From the NCBI GenBank assembly GCA_963733035.1, contig CAVTBU010000001.1:1-64000 (forward strand): a stretch of DNA of 64,000 nt, given 5' to 3'. The notes below the pieces were generated by a model, which saw only the letters and a program-made list of their open reading frames with translations, was not told the DNA's origin and did not search any database. A program made the translations under genes and the position numbers. The stretch's first letter is position 1; each line of letters starts with the position of its first letter. Source of the DNA: Pirellulales bacterium (GTDB lineage: Bacteria; Planctomycetota; Planctomycetia; Pirellulales; PALSA-1355). Shown in pieces: positions 4,523-59,896 of the stretch.

Positions 4523-5443
4523 TTATACGCCCTGTACGCGGACTGTCGTGACCCGCCCCAAAACCGCCCGCGGATCAAGCCGCGCCGGCAGCAACTGTCC
4601 GACGTTTTCCGCCGCCGCGGCGACACCCCGGCGCAGACACTCCGGCATCTCACGTTTCTCGACGATGCCCCACGCCACGCCGGCCGCCAGGCAGTCGCCC
4701 GAGCCGATCGGATTCACGACCTCAACGGTTGGTGGAACGAGCGAAAACTGGCCCGTTGGTCCGCTGACGAGCATGGGTCGGCCGCCATCGGTAATTGCCA
4801 CCCACTGAGCGCCGCGCTGGTGCAACTCGGCCACGGCGTCGCGGACATCGCTTTGATTGCTTAGCTCTCGTCCGACCGTCAGGGCGAGTTCCTCTCGATT
4901 CGGTTTGACCAAGAGCGGTTGGAATTCTAACGCCGCCCACAATTCCGGACCTCGAAAGTCGAGAATGGCAGGGCAGGGGGTCTCGCTGAGCAGTTCACGA
5001 TAGAAGTTCGGCGGAGCGCCCGCTGGCAATGAGCCGGCCAGAACGACCAACTCGGCGCGCTCGACGACTCGGTGGTAAGTCACCCGAAACGCGTCGAGCT
5101 CCCGTTGACTCGCGGCGGCCGTGTTTTCGACCAGTTCAGTCACCTTCGCCGAGCCCGCTTCGAGAAGTGTCGTGCAAACCCGGGTGGACGAGGCCGTGCG
5201 CACCCAGTGTCCGATGACCCCGGCATTCTCAACGTCGCAGCAAACCTGATCGCCTGACGAGCCGCCATACATGCAGACCATTTCGACGGGCACTCCCAAG
5301 CGTGCCAGCGCCAGGGCCACGTTGACGACTTTGCCCGAGGCACACCAATCCACCTTGGAGGCGCGGTTGACCTCGCCGAGCCGCAGCACGTCGAAGCGCA
5401 TGATCTGTTGCCAGGCAGGCGAAAGTCCAGCAACGACAATCAC
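4523..5443 (-). CDS. PfkB-family carbohydrate kinase (1-phosphofructokinase/LacC-like)
   Basis: ASGKVVNVA, VLAGSLP, LVKPNREEL, VNPIGSGD motifs. Confidence 0.9.
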   Translation of the reverse strand: MIVVAGLSPAWQQIMRFDVLRLGEVNRASKVDWCASGKVVNVALALARLGVPVEMVCMYGGSSGDQVCCDVENAGVIGHWVRTASSTRVCTTLLEAGSAKVTELVENTAAASQRELDAFRVTYHRVVERAELVVLAGSLPAGAPPNFYRELLSETPCPAILDFRGPELWAALEFQPLLVKPNREELALTVGRELSNQSDVRDAVAELHQRGAQWVAITDGGRPMLVSGPTGQFSLVPPTVEVVNPIGSGDCLAAGVAWGIVEKREMPECLRRGVAAAAENVGQLLPARLDPRAVLGRVTTVRVQGV

Positions 5444-6626
5444 AGTTGCGCCTCGAGAATGTGTTCCAATTCATCATCGGAAAGATTTCGCGGGTTGCCG
5501 CTCATACTATTGCCCCGCGAGTCACGCACCAGCGCAGGTATCTGATCGGCCCGTACGCCCAGCTCGGAAAGTCGACGCGGAATGCCGATTCGCTCGCAAA
5601 TCGCCTTGACTCGGTCGATGAGTGCCTCGGCCGCGGCGGCGTGAGAGGACGAATCAGTCAGACAGGCCGCGCGTGCCAACTCGGCCAACCGTTCACTGGC
5701 CACGGAACGATTCACTTGCAAGGCCGTCGGCAGCATCACGGCGCATGCCAGACCATGAGGAACATTGCAATGGACGCCCAGCGCCGCGGCCACGCCGTGG
5801 GCCATCCCCAGCCCGGAATTGGCCAGCGCCATCCCAGACAACAGCGCCGAGTGGGCCATCGCTTCGCGCGCCGGCGCGAGGTTCCATTCTCCACCGCCTC
5901 GACGATTGCCGGCAACGCTAGCTTCAAGCCCCCAACCGCGAGTGCTTGCGGAATTGGCCTGGCGCGAATCGAGATGTAACTTTCGATCAACTGCGTGATC
6001 GCGTCCATGCCGGTATGGGCCGTCGTCTTCGGCGGCAGCGTGACGGCCAATTGCGGGTCGACAACCACAGCCCTGGGCATCATGCCATTGTCGCGAAGAC
6101 TCTTTTTGACACTTGGAGAATCGACCGAAATCACCGCGTTCTTCGTGGCCTCGCTGCCAGTCCCGGCGGTGGTCGGCATCGCCACTACAGGCAGCGGCCT
6201 CAACAAAAGCTTGAGCCCACGGCCGACGCCTTCCAAGTAATCACGAACAGACTCACCCTCGGTGTTGGTTGCCAGGGCGGCCAGCGCCTTGGCGAGATCG
6301 ATCGCCGAGCCGCCGCCCAGTGCCAACACAACGTCTCCTTCGCGGGCACCCCTTCCGCGCAGCCGCGCCGCGGCCTGGTCGACCTCGGCCACCGTTGGCT
6401 CGCCGCGCGATTCGGCGAGCGCAACGGCCTCGACGCCATGGTCGTGTAACACGTCGTGCAGTTCCGCCACCAGCCCGGCGGCCTCCAGCGACCGCGATCC
6501 GGAGACGACCCACGCCCGACGGCCCAACGACGCCGCAAGCGGCCCGACCTCGCGCCAGCGTCCCCACCCAAACAGAATCTGCGGCGGCGCGAGGAAATCG
6601 TAGCTGGGCAGAGGTTCTTGGCTCAT
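5440..6626 (-). CDS. Iron-containing alcohol dehydrogenase (single frameshift near 5872)
   Basis: GGGSAIDLAK, PTTAGTGSEAT and GMDAITQLIES lie in ORF 5736-6626; GLGMAHG..HG.AC lies in ORF 5440-5859. One added base joins them as ENGTSRPAREAMAHSALL. Confidence 0.88.
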
Positions 6627-6717
6627 GCTGCGTATTATCTTGGTCTTACGATTTCTGGCAACCGGCAGGTGGAGGGCGCGACTTTCTCCTTCTGAAGCAC
6701 TTGTCTAGGATATTGGT

Positions 6718-7119
6718 ATGAACATCGACGGTACGCGACGTGTGATGGAAACCTCTTGCCAAGACACGGCCAACCAATATCTGCGCTTTGGTTGGCGGCT
6801 GATAAATCAATATGTCGTCGCGGCCACGGCGGATACACCGGCAAGAGTCATCTACGTACTGGCAAGCGTTCTCCGCCTGGAGGACACACGGCGGGTGGTC
6901 CCGCTCACCAATCCCGATTCACTCAATCAGTATCTCGAATTGGGCTGGAAATTGATTGAAAAGTATGTCACGGCGTCCAGCGACCCGAATCGCCGCGACG
7001 AAGTCTTGCACTACGTCGTTGCCTGGCAAACGGACGATCCGCCCCTGCATCCAGGGTCCTCCGGGGGCGGCAACAGACAGTTCGATTCCATTCTTCAACC
7101 CGACGACCAGCTATACTAG
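6718..7119 (+). CDS. Hypothetical protein built from two ~52 aa internal repeats
   Basis: TRRV...ANQYLRFGWRLINQYV and TRRV...LNQYLELGWKLIEKYV. Confidence 0.7.
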   Translation: MNIDGTRRVMETSCQDTANQYLRFGWRLINQYVVAATADTPARVIYVLASVLRLEDTRRVVPLTNPDSLNQYLELGWKLIEKYVTASSDPNRRDEVLHYVVAWQTDDPPLHPGSSGGGNRQFDSILQPDDQLY

Positions 7120-7217
7120 TGCGATGTCCGCGTTCGTTTGCGAGTGGAACGCTCTGTTGGACGCCGCGGCACATTTCGACCCGTTTTCCAAACTCAGCCC
7201 AGTCGCCACGCAACGCC

Positions 7218-8168
7218 ATGCCCTCTCAGCCCACACGACGCCAGATGCTCAGTCAATCGCTGACCGCTGCGGCCGCCGCCACCGTTCTTTCGCAATCGGC
7301 CATGGCCCAGGCCGCGGAGCGCCCGGAAAACGAACCGTTTGGCTATTGCTTTAACACCAGCACAATTCGCGGGCAGAAGCTCCCGCTGGTCGAGGAACTG
7401 GAGATCGCGGCGCGAGCCGGATTCCAGGGGGTTGAGCCGTGGGTGGCCGAACTCGACGAATATGTCAAGGGTGGCGGATCCCTCTCGGACTTACGAAAAC
7501 GGATTGCCGATCTCGGCCTTTCCGTCGAAAGCGTGATTGGCTTCTCGCCCTGGATTGTCGACGACGATGCCAAACGGGCAACTGGCCTCGACGATGCCAA
7601 GCGGGTGATGAATATGACCGCCGAGATCGGCGGCACGCGCATCGCCGCACCCGCTTCGGGAATCTCGGATGCCGATCGACCGGATCTGCCCACGATCGCC
7701 GAACGTTACCGCGCCCTGCTCGATGTGGGCGACCAGTGCGGCGTCGTGCCGCAGATCGAACTTTGGGGATTCTCGCCTCTGCTCAGCAAGCTCAGTGAAG
7801 TGAGTTACGCCGCCATCGCCAGCGATCATCCACGGGCGTGCATTCTGGCGGACTCCTACCACCTCTACAAAGGCGGCACGCCATATGAGAATCTGCGGCT
7901 GCTCAATGGTGGCGCGATGCATGTGTTCCATATCAACGACTACCCTGCGACGCCTGAGCGAGCCGAAATCACTGACGCGCACCGCGTCTTCCCCGGAGAC
8001 GGTGTGGCGCCGCTCGGCCCGCTGTTTCGCACGCTGCGCGACACGGGCTTCCGGGGCATGCTATCGCTGGAAGTATTCAACCGCGAGTACTGGAATCAAG
8101 ACGCACTTTATGTCGCCCGCGCCGGATTTGAAAAGACGCGTGAGGCGGTTCAAAAGGCGTTTGCCTAG
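7218..8168 (+). CDS. Sugar phosphate isomerase/epimerase (xylose-isomerase-like TIM barrel), Tat-exported
   Basis: TRRQML twin-arginine signal; IELWG, LADSYH, HVFHIND, RVFPGDG, LSLEVFN metal-binding motifs. Confidence 0.88.
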   Translation: MPSQPTRRQMLSQSLTAAAAATVLSQSAMAQAAERPENEPFGYCFNTSTIRGQKLPLVEELEIAARAGFQGVEPWVAELDEYVKGGGSLSDLRKRIADLGLSVESVIGFSPWIVDDDAKRATGLDDAKRVMNMTAEIGGTRIAAPASGISDADRPDLPTIAERYRALLDVGDQCGVVPQIELWGFSPLLSKLSEVSYAAIASDHPRACILADSYHLYKGGTPYENLRLLNGGAMHVFHINDYPATPERAEITDAHRVFPGDGVAPLGPLFRTLRDTGFRGMLSLEVFNREYWNQDALYVARAGFEKTREAVQKAFA

Positions 8169-8176
8169 AGCGCAAA

Positions 8177-8359
8177 ATGCGTGATGAAGCCAGCTATATC
8201 TGCGATTCGTGCGGAGAGGAGATCGTGATTCCGATCGATCCGTCGGCCGGCAGCGTGCAGCAATACGTCGAGGATTGCCCCGTTTGCTGTCATCCGCACG
8301 TGCTCCACGTCGAGTTCGACGACGAGGGGAACGCATTCGTTCATAGCCAGCACGAATAA
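8177..8359 (+). CDS. CPXCG-motif cysteine-rich small protein
   Basis: CDSCGE...IDPSAG..QQYVEDCPVCC pattern. Confidence 0.8.
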   Translation: MRDEASYICDSCGEEIVIPIDPSAGSVQQYVEDCPVCCHPHVLHVEFDDEGNAFVHSQHE

Positions 8360-8487
8360 TCGCGCGGCGAAACTGACGCTCACGGAATTCAAGAAGGGCG
8401 CCTGGCCTTTATCGTCGCAATCACCCGCGCCCTGCCAGGCCAACGGCACGCTGTCTACGTTAGCGCCTCCGGTTGGCGTGTGCTGTT

Positions 8488-9162
8488 CTAACTTGCCGTC
8501 GCGCATGCGGAGCGTGCGGTGGGCTGCGCGGCAATGTCGGGTTCGTGCGTAACCATGATGATCGTCTTGCCCGCCCCGTTGAGCGCTTCGAGCAGTTGCA
8601 TGATTTCCTCGCCCGTGGCCGAGTCGAGGTTACCGGTGGGTTCGTCCGCCAGGATGACGCGGGGGTTGTTCACCAGGGCTCGGGCGATCGCCACACGCTG
8701 TTGTTGACCGCCCGATAGCTGAAACGGCCGATGGTCAAGACGATCTTGAAGTCCTACCATTTCCGCCATATCGAGGCAGCGCTGTTTCGCCTCGCGAGAA
8801 ACGTCCCCCTGGTAATAGAGCGGCAGCTCGATATTCTCGACGACGGTCAATTGGGCAATCAGGTTGTACGATTGAAAGATGAAACCCAAATACCGGCTGC
8901 GGATTTCCGACAACTCGTCGTCGTCGAGCTGGGAGACGTCTTGCCCGGCGAGGACGTACTGTCCACTGCTGGCACGATCGAGACAGCCCAGAAGGTTCAG
9001 CAGGGTACTTTTGCCGGAACCGGAAGTACCCATGATGGCGACGAAGTCGCCCTCGGGAAAATCAATCGAAACGCCCCGCAATGCGCGCACGGTAATCCCG
9101 CCCTTCAGGACATAGTCCTTATGGACATCGATCACTCGGGCTGCCATCTTCACTTCGCTCAC
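8488..9162 (-). CDS. ABC transporter ATP-binding protein (MacB/LolD type); C-terminal frameshift near 8523
   Basis: Walker [39 protein letters not shown]. The natural ending (A)[11 protein letters not shown] continues in another frame. Confidence 0.9.
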
Positions 9163-53958: not shown

Positions 53959-55485
53959 ATGGCCACCGTGAGCTTCGAACCACTGCCCGCCAATCTGGCC
54001 GAAATCCAAGTCAAGATCGAGGGCTATGCCCGCGACTACGGGCTTGATTTCTATCCCACGATCTTCGAACTGATCGACGCCGACCAGCTCAATGCCGTGG
54101 CGGCCTACGGCGGCTTTCCCACGCGCTATCCGCATTGGCGATTCGGCATGGAGTTCGAACAACTCAACAAGGGATATACCTACGGGCTGCAGAAGATCTA
54201 CGAGCTGGTGATCAACAACAATCCGTGCTACGCCTATCTGATGCGCTGTAACGGATTGGTCGATCAGAAGTTGGTGATGGCCCACGTGTACGGGCACTGC
54301 GACTTCTTCAAGAACAACTATTGGTTCAGCCAGACCAACCGCAAGATGATGGACGAGATGGCCAACCACGGCAATCGCATCCGTCGTTACATGGACCGCT
54401 TTGGCGTGGAACCGGTCGAGACCTTCATCGACGCGTGCCTGAGCATTGAAGACCTGATCGACATTCACTCGCCGTTCGTCAAACGCTTCGACCAGCCGAA
54501 CCGCTACGACTTTGATCGGGGACACGACGAGGTGGAAGAGTCGGTAACGCCAGGCCGTTTTCAGGCAAAAGATTATATGGACTCGTTTATCAACCCGCCG
54601 CAGGTCCTCTCGGCCGAAGCCGACCGTATGCGGCAGGCGCAGGAAAAGCAGCTGCACTTTCCGCCGGAACCAGTGCGCGACGTGATGTTGTTCGTGCTCG
54701 AGAACGCGCCGCTGCGTCCTTGGCAGCTCGATGTGCTTTCGATCGTCCGCGACGAAGCCTATTACTTCGCGCCGCAAGCGCAAACGAAAATCATGAACGA
54801 AGGCTGGGCCAGCTACTGGCACTCCACGATCATGACCCGGCAGGGACTCGAAGCCGCCGACGTGGTCAACTACTGCGATCATCACTCCGGCACGCTGGCA
54901 AGTTCCCCCACGAAGCTCAATCCTTACAAACTGGGCATCGAGCTGTTCCGCGACATCGAAGAGCGCTGGAACAAGGGTCGCTTTGGCAAGGAATATGAAG
55001 AGTGCGACGACCTGGCTCGCAAGCGAGACTGGGACACCGGCGCGAACCTGGGGCGGCAAAAGATCTTCGAGGTCCGCAAGATCCACAACGACCTGACGTT
55101 CATCGACGAGTTCCTCACGCTCGACTTCGTCCGGCAATACAAGCTGTTTTCATTCGGTTACAACCCGTCGAGCGATGCCTACGAAATCGAAAGCCGCGAG
55201 TTCCCCAAGGTCAAACAGCAATTACTGTTCAGCCTGACTAACGTCGGTCGGCCGTTGATCGCGGTTCGCGACGGCAACTACAAGAATCGCGGCGAGCTCT
55301 ATCTGGAGCACACGTTCAACGGGGTGGAACTGAAACTGAATTATGCGCACGACACGCTGGTCAATCTGCATGCCCTGTGGTGCCGGCCCGTGCACATCGA
55401 AACCGTGCTCGACGGAACCCGCACGATTCTCTCGTTCGACGGAAGTGAGCACAAAACCGAGAAATGTGAAGAGGCGGAACCATGA
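53959..55485 (+). CDS. spoVR: SpoVR/YcgB family protein
   Basis: RYPHWRFG, YELVINNNPC, AHVYGHCDFFKNN, QTKIMNEGWASYWH, NPYKLG. Confidence 0.95.
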   Translation: MATVSFEPLPANLAEIQVKIEGYARDYGLDFYPTIFELIDADQLNAVAAYGGFPTRYPHWRFGMEFEQLNKGYTYGLQKIYELVINNNPCYAYLMRCNGLVDQKLVMAHVYGHCDFFKNNYWFSQTNRKMMDEMANHGNRIRRYMDRFGVEPVETFIDACLSIEDLIDIHSPFVKRFDQPNRYDFDRGHDEVEESVTPGRFQAKDYMDSFINPPQVLSAEADRMRQAQEKQLHFPPEPVRDVMLFVLENAPLRPWQLDVLSIVRDEAYYFAPQAQTKIMNEGWASYWHSTIMTRQGLEAADVVNYCDHHSGTLASSPTKLNPYKLGIELFRDIEERWNKGRFGKEYEECDDLARKRDWDTGANLGRQKIFEVRKIHNDLTFIDEFLTLDFVRQYKLFSFGYNPSSDAYEIESREFPKVKQQLLFSLTNVGRPLIAVRDGNYKNRGELYLEHTFNGVELKLNYAHDTLVNLHALWCRPVHIETVLDGTRTILSFDGSEHKTEKCEEAEP

Positions 55486-55961
55486 CGCTCAAAGACCAAC
55501 TGCAGCAAACACTGGCCGCGCTGCCGCTGTTTTCCAGCGGCCAGCAGAGTGTGGACCTGTGCGAAAACAACCAGCATCTCAGTTGCCAGCTGACAGCCCT
55601 CGACACGCTGGCCTGCGCCTTTACGCGGCTCGCGTTGCGGGCAGACAGCCTGGCCAACCGTGCGCCAGACGACCTCAAGTGGATTGCCGAAAACCTCTCG
55701 GCTAAGCTCACCTACCTGCTCGAACCAATCAGCCCCATCGAGACCGACTCCGAGGGCTGCGTCGTTCAGATGCGCTCCAATCCGCCTCAAAAAGACGCCG
55801 ACCGCACGAGCTACTACGAACTGCTCGTCGCGCGGACCGGCGAATTGAGCCTCGCCCGCTACACGCGGGCAGTCGGCCAAGCGCGCGAGGTGGTGCCGGC
55901 CGAGGTAACTCGCGAAGTCTTGTGCCGCCTGGCCGGCGACCTTTCGGTCGCTGCTGTCTAA
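55482..55961 (+). CDS. Hypothetical protein translationally coupled to spoVR
   Basis: ATGA start/stop overlap, GAGG SD, host-like codon usage, motif LTYLLEPISPIE.D...VQMRS.PP. Confidence 0.8.
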   Translation: MTLKDQLQQTLAALPLFSSGQQSVDLCENNQHLSCQLTALDTLACAFTRLALRADSLANRAPDDLKWIAENLSAKLTYLLEPISPIETDSEGCVVQMRSNPPQKDADRTSYYELLVARTGELSLARYTRAVGQAREVVPAEVTREVLCRLAGDLSVAAV

Positions 55962-56211
55962 CGATTCAGACCGCCGTACTGACACGCCGAATCTTTTTGA
56001 GCGTCGTGGTCTCTCTGCGCACATCGTCGCAATTGGTAGCACCGCAACTTTCGCTGACGAAATCGTTCGGATGCGGAATCCGTCCCAATACGCCAATTGC
56101 CACAGCCTGACGTTCCGGACATTGGCACCCACCATTTCAGGGCATACAATCGCCCCAGAGACAGCACTCAGCTTGCCTCGATGGTTCTCGCCCGCATTAG
56201 GAGCCCCTGAG

Positions 56212-58097
56212 ATGTCTGATAAGGTTGAACGAGTCGCCGAGGCCGAGGAACCTGCCGAAACGGAATACTCGAACTGCGAGGTTGATGATTCTGGTGCAAC
56301 TGAACTTTCCCCGCCTAAGGCTCGAAATGCCGATCAGGAAGATCAAGAGACCGTCGACCAACCAGACACCGCTAGCGCCCACTCCGACTTGTGTGACGAA
56401 GCGACAGAATTAGACGCGCTCGAATCGATTGAGAGTGACGCGCGCTCGACCGAAACCTGCGACGACACCCACCAACCGAACCGAGAAAGGAAGCTACACA
56501 AGCGTAGGCGAGTAGTACAGGCCCCGGCCGAAGCTCGGCTTCGCGGTCGGCGACAATTCTGCAAACGGATTGCCGATATTGCGCCGTACATGCTGAAGAC
56601 AGTCAAATTGAGGATCCTTGGGAACTACCTGAATTCCACGAAAGGACTTTCCGACGACGCCCTGACCGAGCAGTTGAGAAAAGACGCGGGCAAGATAGCG
56701 GCGAGGGATCGCATTCTTGGCGCCTTTGAATCTCTCGATTCAACGGCAGACTTACGAAATCTGAAGTGGATCATCCTAATTGGAGTACTCCTCCAAGAGG
56801 AAACCTACAGCCTCGAGGAATCGCGACTGGAAGAGAAAGTAGTCGATTTCGAAAAGCGAGTCGTAAAACGAGCCCGCACGCTGGATTTCTTCGACAAGAA
56901 GAGCCACGAAGAAACGCGATGGCACTTCTACGACACGTACCGAATCGTTCTCGAAGCGGCCTGGGCAAAGGACGAGGACATCTCTGTCGACGAAGCCAAC
57001 CTTTTGGCGGTCTTGCGAGACCATCTCAGCATTACGATGGAGGAGCACTGGGCCATTGGAGCGTACATAAAACGATTCCCGAAAACCAAGTGCCTTCTTC
57101 ACACACCAGAGGAAATCCATGACGCCCGTAAGCAACTTCAAAAAGAATCGCTATTGTGGAACTACCGCGACGAACATGACCGCCGAATTGATGTCATTCC
57201 ATACGAGGTCGTACAACTATTGGCTCAGGAAGTTGCGCGCAGGAACTTCAACGCACAAACTATCATCGACTGCTGCAAAACGACAGCATCAAGCTCAGCG
57301 ACCTGCGCGATGTCCTACAGGCCAACAGCATGGACCGCAATGGAAACAAGGACCTGTTGATCACCCGGATTGCCGAGAGCGACGTGCGGCCGAGCGATGT
57401 GTTGGGCGCGTTGGACAGCGATAAACTTGCAAAAATGTGCAGGGCTGTCGCCTTGCCTTCATCGGGCTCAAAATCCGAGCGCATCGTTAGATTGATCGAC
57501 TTCTATGATGACCTTACGTTCGAAGAGCGCACTACTCAGGATGCTCGAGAGGAATGGTACAGCAACTATGAACTTCTTGCTGCGAGGAGCTATTCGGATT
57601 TAAAAGCCAAGAAGGTCATCAACAGGGACCTCGATATCGAGCACCAATTCGAGAGGGCAACTGATTTCTTGTTTGAGACAAAACTGCGAGTGCCCGTCGA
57701 CCACAAACGGAAGGGCACCAAGGCCGACGGACGCATCTTGCTTGAAAACCGACAGTCCATTCTTTGGGATTGCAAGTCAAACGAGAAGTCCGTCAACCTG
57801 CAAGACCATCTGGAGAGCCAGTTTGATGGCTATCTTAGAAGGGAAGCCGCCTGCGGCAACCAATGTCTCGCATTCATCGTGATCGGACCCGCATTCACCG
57901 CGCAGTCACTTAAGCTCTGTCATCAATACAAGGCCAGAACAAACTGGGATGTTGCGCTCGTCACGGCAGAGGCGCTGAAGCATCTGGCTGAACTGTGGAG
58001 CACCACCTCTGGCGGAAAGCAATTTCCAATCAGGCTCCTCAACCGCACCGAGTTGATCGACAAAGAAAAGGCGGAGTATTTACACAGCTTGGCGTAA
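56212..58097 (+). CDS. TerB-like + tandem SAP + PD-(D/E)XK nuclease domain protein; frameshift near 57240
   Basis: AGGAG SD; AAWAKDEDISVDEANLLAVLRDHLSI; two SAP-like motifs; C-terminal FERAT...KADGRI...ILWDCKS. Confidence 0.65.
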
Positions 58098-58153
58098 CTA
58101 ACGGCGGGCAAGTGTATTGATTGACACCGCAGACGAACACGCGACCCTAACGG

Positions 58154-58182
58154 TTGCTCACTATTCATCGTAGGCTTATGAT
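58154..58182 (+). promoter_or_regulatory. sigma70-type promoter for hemQ
   Basis: TTGCTC-17 nt-TATGAT. Confidence 0.55.
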
Positions 58183-58245
58183 TCGGCATTCGTTCGACGA
58201 ATTCGCGCCGGACAGCGTTACTCCGTAGGAGAGCTTTAACCCACG

Positions 58246-59073
58246 ATGAGCCACTCGCCAGGAACCGAAATCTCCCTCAAGCCGGCCGAAGGCTGGCACT
58301 GTAGCCATTTATATTACCGATTCAACCGCGCCGAACTGAAGCAGCTCAGTGCGGCCGAATTGACCGCGGGGCGGGAGCAATTCGCCGCCGTGCTCGATCC
58401 GCAGGCAACGGGATCGCCGGCTCGACTGCAAACATCGGTCGTTAGCGGCCACAAGGCCGACTTCGGCCTGATGATTTTGGACGCCGATCCGTTGGTCGTC
58501 GACAACGTGCATCAGCGGTTGATGTCTGGACCGCTCGGCCCGGCGCTCGAACCGAGCTACTCGTTCGTCTCGCTTACCGAGGTTTCCGAGTACGTCCCCT
58601 CGGTCGAGCAGTACGGCCAGCGGCTGGTCGCCGAAGGCGAGGATCCAAACGGCCAGGCGTATGCCGCCAAGCTAAAGGCCTACGAAGGCCGCGAAGTCAT
58701 GATGCGCCGGCAGCGGCTCACGCCCGATCTGCCCCCGTGGCCCTCCACGTGCTTCTACCCGATGAACAAGAAGCGAAAAGTCGGCGAGAACTGGTTCCTG
58801 CTCAATTTCGACGAGCGCAGCCGGATGATGACCGAGCACGGCCGCACCGGCATGACCTTCGGCGGCAAGGTGACACAGCTCATCACCGTCGGACTTGGCT
58901 ACGACGACTGGGAATGGGGGGTCACACTCTGGGCCCGCAACCCCGAGTTCCTCAAGGACATCGTCTATCGCATGCGATTCGACGAAGCCAGTGCTCGCTA
59001 TGCCGAGTTTGGACCGTTCTACGTCAGCTACGTAATGAGCCCCGAGCAGGTGCTGAAGCACTGCCGGATTTGA
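58246..59073 (+). CDS. hemQ: Coproheme decarboxylase / chlorite-dismutase family haem protein
   Basis: GHKADF, SFVSLTEVSEY, FYPMNKKR..NW, MTEHG, DDWEWGVTL, MRFDEASARYAEFGPFY. Confidence 0.85.
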   Translation: MSHSPGTEISLKPAEGWHCSHLYYRFNRAELKQLSAAELTAGREQFAAVLDPQATGSPARLQTSVVSGHKADFGLMILDADPLVVDNVHQRLMSGPLGPALEPSYSFVSLTEVSEYVPSVEQYGQRLVAEGEDPNGQAYAAKLKAYEGREVMMRRQRLTPDLPPWPSTCFYPMNKKRKVGENWFLLNFDERSRMMTEHGRTGMTFGGKVTQLITVGLGYDDWEWGVTLWARNPEFLKDIVYRMRFDEASARYAEFGPFYVSYVMSPEQVLKHCRI

Positions 59074-59119: not shown

Positions 59120-59896
59120 CTACTTCTTCGTCTTCGGCGTCAGCACCATCCGTACCCGAGTGCCGACCGGCGGGATATGCTCGGTAAAGGCTTCGTACAG
59201 CAGGGCTTCGTTCGACTGGCTGCTTTCGACCGGCAGGTCGAGCATGGCGGTGGGAAAGTTCGAAACACAGATAAAGTCACCCGACTCGGCCAGGTAGGCC
59301 TTCTCGCCAGTTACTTCGTCCTGCCAAAAGCCGCTGCCGCCGAATACCCAGGGATGCGCAAGCGCTTTGCCAGTCTTGACGTTGCGAACCCAATCCTGGG
59401 CTCGGTCGCGGTGAACCTTGCCGTCTTTGTCGGTCCAAACGAGCTCGATGTCGATCTCGCTTCCCGTGGCCGGCTTATAGTCGGGCTGATACTGTACCGG
59501 GGTCCCCGCTTCGGCGCCTACGGCCAGCAGGCCGGCATGTACGGCATAGGCCCGCGTGTCGGCGGCGATGATTGACTCGTGCTCCTTGGTGCCACGGGGG
59601 CAGGCGAACATTTCGAGTTGCCCCTCCCGCAGGCAGACGGTGCCGTCGACGACGACCCGCTTATGCGCGGGATCGATCCAGACGTCGTAACCCTTCATCA
59701 GCCGCTTCATGCCGGCCGGATCCTTGGAAAGCGAACGTCCGGTTGCCGTCTCTGTCATCGGCTGTTCCGTCGCCGGCGATCCATCGGCCGCGGGCGGTTG
59801 CTCTGCCCGGAGCAGCGTCTGGACGCCAAACAGCCAGGCAAAAATGCCAAACAGGACGGCCAGACAAATCAAACGAGGCGACGGCAATCCTTGCAT
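59120..59896 (-). CDS. YdjY domain-containing secreted protein
   Basis: LEMFACPRGTKEHESI, VHAGLLAVGAEAG, WVFGGS, GDFICVSNF; signal peptide. Confidence 0.75.
   Translation of the reverse strand: MQGLPSPRLICLAVLFGIFAWLFGVQTLLRAEQPPAADGSPATEQPMTETATGRSLSKDPAGMKRLMKGYDVWIDPAHKRVVVDGTVCLREGQLEMFACPRGTKEHESIIAADTRAYAVHAGLLAVGAEAGTPVQYQPDYKPATGSEIDIELVWTDKDGKVHRDRAQDWVRNVKTGKALAHPWVFGGSGFWQDEVTGEKAYLAESGDFICVSNFPTAMLDLPVESSQSNEALLYEAFTEHIPPVGTRVRMVLTPKTKK

Follow-up and report, generated by a model that had tools for sequence, protein, structure and literature searches.

A frameshifted gene for a predicted SAP-motif, FokI-type nuclease, and candidate defence gene, in a Pirellulales bacterium

The locus and its reading frames

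The first 64,000 nt of contig CAVTBU010000001.1 from a Pirellulales bacterium (assembly GCA_963733035.1), a stretch that we refer to throughout as the window, contain a predicted nuclease gene at 56212-58097 (+ strand), located between the spoVR operon and hemQ and broken by a one-base gap at 57239-57241. Two plus-strand open reading frames (ORFs), 56071/56212..57360 in frame A and 57330..58097 in frame C, overlap here in different frames, and in a three-frame translation of 57100-57420 frame C is open well upstream of its ATG, reading ...QELQRTNYHRLLQNDSIKLSDLRDVLQANSMDRNGNKDLLITRI. A first-pass annotation of the window had proposed that one added base near 57240 restores a protein of ~630 amino acids (aa), and this is borne out: the read-through product has 342+1+285 = 628 aa and aligns end to end with intact homologues. 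All four motifs quoted in that annotation are present, the first SAP-like motif being hidden, as it had said, in the unannotated frame C. The reading frames and associated signals are as follows.

56122..56150, + strand: promoter-like site TTGGCA-17-TACAAT, ~60 nt upstream of the start, 10/12 matches
56199..56203, + strand: Shine-Dalgarno-like AGGAG, 8 nt before the ATG at 56212; the upstream sequence ends ...AGGAGCCCCTGAGATG
56212..57240, + strand: N-terminal reading frame (frame A), 343 codons, encoding an acidic tail, a basic patch and a helical domain
57236..57241, + strand: frameshift site in GCGCGC, frame A to frame C, one base short of intact homologues
57240..58097, + strand: C-terminal reading frame (frame C), 285 codons plus stop, encoding two SAP motifs, a linker and the nuclease domain

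Intact homologues (n = 19; 626-655 aa, 50-64% identical to the first half) cover both halves end to end, and genome G033, from the same order, has an uninterrupted frame of 640 aa. The junction reads V-A-(G/R)-Q-E-L-Q-R-T-N-(Y/F) in the homologues, and comparison of the window (GAA GTT GCG CG/C AGG AAC TT, the slash marking the break) with these and with the intact locus L012 (GTC GCT CGG CAG GAA CTT) indicates that one base has gone at 57239-57241, in the GCGCGC run. Neither half contains further stops. The methionine equivalent to that at 56212 is the start of the homologues, which supports this ATG; the promoter-like site is weak, with one such site in the window against 1.1 expected in shuffled sequence.

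As the one-base frameshift falls between the N-terminal domain and the first SAP motif, the window copy is probably switched off, barring an assembly error at the gap. Two soil-metagenome runs among public reads match the stretch; their three matching pieces (140-151 nt, each 100% identical) all lie within 57312-57841 and miss 57240, and there is no RNA run among the public read sets that match. Programmed frameshifting was considered and rejected, as the site has no slippery heptamer and the homologues are unshifted.

The closest known relative of the N-terminal half, P0172 (341 aa, 80% identical), exits the frame immediately after ...VAR, at the same codon as the window, and then enters the window's third frame (alignment score 71, versus 16 and 23 for the other frames). 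The two breaks fit alleles that are one GC unit apart, and the disruption of one codon in two different ways suggests a mutational hot spot or a switch at this position. If the break were functional, either the halves would act as separate proteins or the GC tract would be a slippage switch conferring phase variation, and both the shared codon with its two different wrong frames and the absence of further stops in either half are consistent with this. We nonetheless regard it as very improbable. P0172 is known here as a protein and not as DNA, (GC)3-4 is short for a slippage tract, translation from the downstream ATG at 57330 would halve the first SAP motif, most homologues are single intact ORFs that have no GC run at the site, and the assembly could be in error there.

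Domain organization of the predicted protein

From its N-terminus the read-through protein is predicted to consist of a disordered tail that is acidic and then basic, a helical N-domain that includes a TerB-like helix pair and ends in a winged-helix-like element, two SAP motifs, a linker, and a FokI-type cleavage domain. Numbering in the C-terminal part refers to the frame C product (the C-piece).

56917..57057, + strand: TerB-like segment (aa 236-282, RWHFYDTYRIVLEAAWAKDEDISVDEANLLAVLRDHLSITMEEHWAI), from hhalign and sub-threshold Pfam matches in relatives
57097..57240, + strand: helix/beta-hairpin/helix, winged-helix-like, at the end of the N-domain, from AlphaFold secondary structure
57291..57380, + strand: SAP motif 1 (C-piece aa 14-43), Pfam SAP PF02037
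57426..57509, + strand: SAP motif 2 (C-piece aa 59-86), sub-threshold in the window and clear in homologues
57546..58064, + strand: FokI-type cleavage domain (C-piece aa 99-271), from VIA, Foldseek and Pfam in relatives
57651..57776, + strand: putative catalytic residues E134 (57651), D159 (57726), D173 (57768) and K175 (57774), C-piece numbering, from conservation

The C-terminus had been assigned to the PD-(D/E)XK nucleases, an assignment that structure searches and conserved residues now narrow to the FokI cleavage-domain type. An AlphaFold model of 57252-58094 has a mean predicted local distance difference test score (pLDDT) of 94.4, and its best VIA match is FokI 404-579 (Z 14.8, root-mean-square deviation 3.1 Å, 155 aa), followed by N.BspD6I (Z 13.3) and the R.BspD6I small subunit (Z 12.3), with the next family, HindIII, at Z 8.8; Foldseek matches the cleavage domain at E 1.3e-5. 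The Pfam model PF09254 (FokI_cleav_dom) has no match to the window C-piece at E<=0.1. A precomputed PF09254 match is listed for the window's 255 aa ORF, and 14 of 41 relatives match at E<=0.01, P0052 alone scoring above the cut-off (32.2 vs 25 bits). In alignment A2, the rows of which are 21-68% identical to the window, 53 of the 54 rows retain E134, and the same count holds for D159, for D173 and for K175; by their motif we take these residues to correspond to FokI D450/D467/K469.

The cleavage domain is predicted to homodimerise. A model of two copies of residues 95-281 gives an ipSAE of 0.56 against 0.01 for the best control, with three runs agreeing in at least 94% of contacts and a partner pLDDT of at least 88. 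In calibration 20 of 30 proteins with a solved pair structure reached this mark, against 1 of 23 single-chain structures. The alignment supplied was our own and the FokI dimer has already been solved, so the score may echo that likeness.

Two SAP motifs had been claimed, and the first is secure: it scores above the Pfam cut-off (29.0 vs 23.9 bits, E 7.8e-7). The second is sub-threshold in the window, where only SAP_new25 matches (21.3 bits, cut-off 26.3), and is clear in homologues, P0002 for example having two SAP stretches. The model has two helix-loop-helix units in this region, Foldseek matches it to DEK with a probability of 0.98, and SAP is matched in 20 of the 21 rows of alignment A1, the exception being the row of the N-piece (the frame A product). 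Profile comparisons with the SAP motifs of Ku70, DEK, SIZ1 and THO1 are weak (E 0.008-0.2).

The N-terminal half is less readily assigned. Residues 1-90 include 28 D/E and 5 K/R, and residues 91-125 include 3 D/E and 13 K/R, in agreement with the charge pattern described earlier. In the AlphaFold model of the N-piece (mean pLDDT 82.5) residues 1 to ~100 are disordered, residues ~105-343 form a confidently modelled helical domain, and 120-343 score mostly above 90. The TerB-like domain proposed for this region stands weakly, as a likeness at the level of a motif: when the family profile (A4) is aligned by hhalign with six bona fide TerB domains (A6) the match covers 46 columns (E 0.0029, probability 10.8%) and is limited to the second aDG..i..E..L hairpin. 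Neither the window pieces nor any of 21 close homologues are matched by Pfam TerB (PF05099; cut-off 24.4 bits, a domain of ~118 positions), and a six-frame search with it of this genome (G000) and of G033 finds other genes and not this one. Sub-threshold Pfam TerB matches occur in 4 of 41 distant relatives at E<=0.01, the best being P0052 at 22.2 bits. Pfam matches of the N-domain to ENT are weak as well, and ESM Atlas TerB/ENT clusters score 0.78-0.79 against the N-domain, which is the level of a lead only.

TerB is not among the best 50 matches listed in a VIA-wide structure search of the N-domain, and the best matches of the model of residues 156-343 are winged helices of MarR, ORC2 and TubR (Z 7-8.2, middling on the scale of the search tool), in keeping with the modelled secondary structure at the end of the domain (helices 299-311 and 331-342, strands 316-319 and 325-328). 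Foldseek returns no match for the N-domain at E<=0.001, and a sequence profile search of the PDB finds the SAP motifs only, with the N-domain unmatched.

Composition and position in the genome

The gene is AT-richer than its neighbours, as the first-pass annotation had remarked. Its GC content is 0.528 against 0.605 for the window, the lowest of 622 windows of the same length (1.9 kb; standard deviation 0.020), and GC at third codon positions is 0.59/0.66 in the gene pieces versus 0.78-0.80 in spoVR, orf159 and hemQ. The flanking genes code for SpoVR (Pfam, 468 bits) and a chlorite-dismutase/HemQ-like protein (Pfam, 166 bits), and a Pfam scan of the neighbours in the window confirms that no methyltransferase adjoins the gene.

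The order spoVR-orf159-[slot]-hemQ is kept in five of five relatives, and the gene is absent from the slot in all five. This slot, between the spoVR-linked 159 aa ORF and hemQ (window 55961-58246, compared with L040-L044), varies in content: in the congener G001 it is an empty 127 bp, in G002 and G003 it is occupied by a 443 aa oxidoreductase-like ORF (named by reading the sequence, with no family scan), and in two other genera it contains two unrelated ORFs (G004) or PEP-CTERM-like ORFs (G011), named likewise by reading the sequence. The window insert is not bordered by direct or inverted repeats or by att-like sites, alignment to the empty slot of G001 gives no clean junction, and Rfam has no match in 55000-59000. 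The gene is an accessory, compositionally foreign, recent insert; the variable slot, its rarity (below) and its composition uphold the earlier proposal of a horizontally acquired gene that has no methylase.

Beyond hemQ, a 258 aa ORF at 59123-59896 (- strand) encodes a YdjY-domain protein (NCBIfam NF040466, 229 bits), and a YdjY-domain ORF adjoins hemQ in G002 and G003 too.

Distribution, phylogeny and decay

Of 41 relatives two have the gene, and a phylum-wide sample of 401 genomes includes three carriers, this genome (G000) being in both counts; among the 244 genomes that are at least 90% complete there are two. A scan with one genome per species yielded 31 loci, almost all in Planctomycetota. 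Clustering of the 263 ORFs around them gives 245 clusters and reveals no recurrent partner, and the gene's GC content is at least 0.03 under that of the locus in 19 of the 31 loci and above it in none.

A tree was built from the C-terminal 281 residues of 24 intact loci and the window, with broken or partial loci and the duplicate L005 excluded. It contains clades of Gemmataceae and of Pirellulales/Planctomycetales, from which we conclude that much of the history was within lineages; the window clusters with one Phycisphaeraceae and one Thermoguttaceae copy (90/94), and near-identical copies occur in different genera.

At least five copies are disrupted: in addition to the window and P0172 these include L017 (four stops), L026 (a frameshift), L034 (truncated) and L031, where two DDE transposase genes (5545-6753 and 6841-7983) interrupt the gene (4612-8765) and leave an N-part (4612-5457) and a C-part (8001-8765). 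P0180/P0023 is apparently a split copy, judged by the identical length of the longest contig for both. Going by its broken copies, the gene is costly or dispensable.

These patterns bear on whether the protein might be a chromosomal repair, recombination or nucleoid-organising nuclease of Planctomycetota, which its SAP motifs would tether to chromatin-like DNA as in Ku70 and DEK. High conservation, clades that are partly congruent with taxonomy, the weak profile matches to Ku70 and DEK, and neighbours such as PolA, UvrC and a DUF3686 'DNA repair ATPase' are in favour of such a role. It is, however, hard to reconcile with a gene found so seldom in the phylum sample and in none of 24 genomes of the same family, which has no conserved synteny, an atypical composition and repeated pseudogenisation, and which has relatives in defence islands and a virus (below). 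We therefore consider it highly improbable.

A wider family on mobile elements and beside defence genes

An exhaustive, profile-free search with the C-terminal half identified 171 representatives, many of them ~500 aa long, 30-40% identical and without the disordered tail. These shorter relatives share the whole architecture, with Pfam SAP, FokI_cleav_dom (P0052) and weak TerB matches, and the motifs of the N-domain align. ESM Atlas clusters near P0052 with SAP and FokI_cleav_dom have 1077 and 235 members (Bacillota being commonest), 50 (Aminicenantota) and 53 (Archaea), and are annotated merely as hypothetical, SAP-domain or FokI-domain proteins. The architecture had been put forward as one not recognised among named systems, which agrees with our searches of PADLOC, NCBIfam and PHROGs (below) and of the literature, in which neither the architecture nor the channel pairing discussed below is described, although supplementary candidate lists may name the family; with clusters of this size, however, it is not rare.

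Several members are on mobile elements. A 546 aa member, annotated as hypothetical, is encoded by the Halorubrum provirus Humcor1 (hhalign probability 99.9%, E 7.6e-35, 488 columns), which is described as an inducible siphovirus provirus (PMC7911831). Another, likewise annotated as hypothetical, is on the Natrinema megaplasmid pNVE500 near an integrase and an N-6 methylase, and one IMG/VR contig (L047) has a 66% relative 3 kb from an integrase.

The gene could be a weapon or addiction gene of mobile elements, excluding competing elements or penalising the element's own loss, with the chromosomal copies as leftovers. Consistent with this are the members in Humcor1, beside the megaplasmid integrase and on the IMG/VR contig, the integrases, transposases and a terminase that adjoin several loci, and the frequent decay of the copies. 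Yet such elements rarely carry the gene, with one match in 50,697 phage records, one in 72,556 plasmid records and a single IMG/VR contig; the window insert has no flanking repeats or att-like sites, and most loci are chromosomal with ordinary neighbours. We judge this explanation unlikely. It also overlaps with that of a defence nuclease, and prophage-borne defence is common.

For the wider family we collected 34 metagenome loci, 31 of which have callable neighbours, and scanned these with PADLOC at E<=1e-8. Matches were found for 24 of 101 neighbour proteins, distributed over 15 of the 31 loci. Nine loci have matches of at least 150 bits, to HEC-05 (twice), PDC-S05, PDC-S06, PDC-M57B, PDC-S24, ThsB, type I restriction-modification (R-M) together with SIR2-HerA, and MTase_II. 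GmrSD-like HEC-05 genes are directly downstream of the nuclease gene in L061 and L068, and the Pfam families among the neighbours include a NACHT protein, integrases, an IS91 transposase, a terminase and EcoRII-C.

The gene might also encode an ordinary type IIS-like restriction enzyme, with its methyltransferase encoded elsewhere and the SAP motifs and winged helix recognising a sequence. Type IIS enzymes are typified by a FokI-type cleavage domain, an MTase_II gene adjoins the nuclease gene in L088, and L026 is beside a type II R-M pair. That pair, however, is a complete R-M system of its own, the gene has no methylase next to it in the window or in 28 of 30 Planctomycete loci, methyltransferases are not a recurrent class among the 263 neighbour ORFs, and SAP motifs are, to our knowledge, not known as sequence-specific readers, so that an enzyme of this kind seems to us improbable.

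A potassium channel gene beside some family members

The first-pass annotation described the gene as standing alone. This is true of Planctomycetota, but some family members have a K+ channel gene as a partner. Of 69 sequences searched by tblastn, seven have a Kv-like channel gene next to the nuclease gene, with a TVGYGD filter, an arginine-rich S4-like helix and, in most copies, a C-terminal CPHCG. These are as follows.

L013:9695-10528, Kv-like channel gene, 33 nt downstream of the nuclease gene
L030:11929-12831, Kv-like channel gene
L071:1564-2268, Kv-like channel gene
L077:902-1702, Kv-like channel gene
L078:445-1191, Kv-like channel gene
L089:448-1179, Kv-like channel gene
L045:8055-8882, Kv-like channel gene (Humcor1 HrrHm1_130)

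The L078 channel is 95% identical to that of L077 and so is not an independent case, and a more divergent Ion_trans gene is present in L073. Identity among the seven channels, which span Bacteria and an archaeal virus, is 34-42%, and in the tree the window is closest to the channel-bearing L013 and L030. No channel gene lies beside the window copy. A partner elsewhere in this genome was sought and rejected: the sole homologue is unlinked (contig C6), 32% identical and without the CPHCG tail.

These pairings allow a bolder conjecture, namely an as yet undescribed immune module that is linked to membrane or ion status and has this family as its nuclease arm. In the fuller form the gene would pair with the Kv-like CPHCG channel, from Phycisphaerae to a haloarchaeal provirus, and the TerB-like N-domain would read a channel or ion signal and license cutting by the SAP-tethered FokI-type dimer. 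The solitary, tailed form of Planctomycetes would then be an autonomous derivative, with the GC run at 57235-57240 as a recurrent off-switch of a costly gene. Taken as a whole this is a doubtful proposal.

Comparison with known systems

Zinc-finger nuclease and transcription activator-like effector nuclease tools are built on FokI-type cleavage domains, which are known from type IIS enzymes, and SAP motifs are mostly eukaryotic chromatin tethers. Here a FokI-type domain is joined to SAP motifs and to an unexplained N-domain, without a methylase. The protein resembles FokI (PDB 1FOK/2FOK), N.BspD6I and R.BspD6I in the fold of the cleavage domain, in the D...D-x-K motif with an upstream E and in the predicted homodimer, at 13-16% sequence identity to the FokI/BspD6I cleavage domains. 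It differs from FokI in having neither that enzyme's recognition domains nor a partner methyltransferase; DNA would instead be bound by the two SAP motifs and an unrelated helical N-domain. Ku70, DEK, SIZ1/PIAS and THO1 share with it only the helix-extended loop-helix SAP motif of ~35 residues, and are not nucleases.

The solitary type IV restriction enzymes include Mrr, MspJI and GmrSD. As in these, a single methylase-less gene would encode a nuclease with a separate DNA-reader region, but no reader domain is held in common, and the MspJI nuclease is matched only at Z 6.2 (VIA).

A TerB-type helical module is carried by the phage defence systems Shango (SngA), Bunzi (BnzA) and Dionysus (DinB), its mechanism being reported as unknown in each (10.1101/2025.09.30.679545). 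Dionysus combines TerB with a membrane pore protein, much as a subset of the present family is accompanied by a K+ channel. The three systems are multi-gene, with ATPase and helicase or pore-forming partners, whereas the TerB likeness here is sub-threshold and spans 46 columns. No PADLOC Sng or Bnz model matches the protein.

Proposed role

We lean, if only modestly, towards reading the locus as a gene for a single-polypeptide DNA endonuclease of ~628 aa, from an uncharacterised and horizontally mobile family, that serves as a methylase-independent defence nuclease and is frameshifted here. This fits best with the combination of fold, conserved active site, predicted dimer, lack of a methylase, rarity, foreign composition and decay, and with the defence-island and provirus company of full-length relatives. 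As the gene is rare and horizontally acquired and its relatives sit among anti-virus genes, it is a candidate new bacterial immune gene, its anti-phage role resting on gene context and its window copy being frameshifted. The outcomes that the first-pass annotation had named as fatal to its proposal did not materialise: both nuclease and SAP folds were found, the gene is not in conserved synteny, and the searches gave no match to a characterised system.

In such an enzyme the SAP pair, perhaps with the winged helix, would keep the protein on DNA, and two cleavage domains would pair in FokI fashion and cut both strands, with the N-domain restraining or triggering the cut. It would act on invading DNA without a partner methylase, presumably being either a restriction enzyme that depends on DNA modification or structure, or a suicide nuclease triggered by infection.

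Several observations weigh against a defence role. No PADLOC-DB 2.0.0 family matches either window piece (E<=0.1) or P0002 and P0052 (E<=1e-6), and NCBIfam and PHROGs have no match to the family. Nothing defence-like is present in the 64 kb window, where none of the 42 other ORFs has a specific PADLOC match. Defence genes are frequent beside members of the wider family and much less so in Planctomycetota, where a specific defence neighbour occurs in just 5 of 30 loci, 11 of 106 neighbour proteins match PADLOC at E<=1e-6 (several of them generic), and most neighbours are housekeeping genes (PfkB, AlaRS, PolA, UvrC, permeases). A possible enrichment of homologues in defence islands, which the first-pass annotation had proposed to test, was gauged against a rough control that is small, unmatched and from one genome (4 of 42 window ORFs match PADLOC, each through generic domains and none above 118 bits). 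The branching of the tree is largely congruent with taxonomy (Gemmataceae and Planctomycetaceae clades), and protein identity of 60-80% across families exceeds that of many defence nucleases. The link to TerB is weak, the proposed model offers no explanation of how self DNA is spared, and the frameshifted copy may do nothing in this genome.

If intact relatives protect cells, the family would represent a defence system not known before, of one gene or, with the K+ channel, of two, in Bacteria, Archaea and an archaeal virus, and would provide a testable handle on the roles of TerB-like modules and prokaryotic SAP motifs. For this genome the message is smaller, that of a recent foreign insert that is probably already inactivated.

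Genes adjoining individual relatives, and SAP pairs on other proteins

One metagenome-assembled genome of Gemmataceae has nearly identical copies of the gene on separate contigs (L009 and L021), the L009 copy being flanked by a 2335 aa kinase/helicase protein (PADLOC PDC-S37, 327 bits) and a 1939 aa SNF2-type helicase. On the IMG/VR contig (L047:4283-5557 and 6356-7540) the relative is beside an RNase_T exonuclease with weak TerB (21.5 bits) and BRCT matches, a TPR protein and a tyrosine integrase.

A tandem SAP pair similar to that described here is fused to BrxD/SngB-like ATPases in P0130, P0143 and P0145 (P0130 matching PADLOC BrxD at 260 bits and SngB at 175), and prokaryotic SAP pairs therefore occur on other defence-type proteins. 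We considered whether these fusions also have the N-domain in common with the nuclease and rejected this, as BLASTP gives E 1.7 (P0130 only) and the SAP pair alone is shared.

A 489 aa DUF2779 protein is encoded directly upstream of the nuclease gene and in the same direction in two loci of the wider family (L066:940-2406 and L086:5467-6933), and in L086 this pair of genes lies between type I R-M genes and a SIR2-HerA pair. A Metallophos (calcineurin-like phosphoesterase) gene follows PDC-S06 in L066 and SIR2-HerA in L086.

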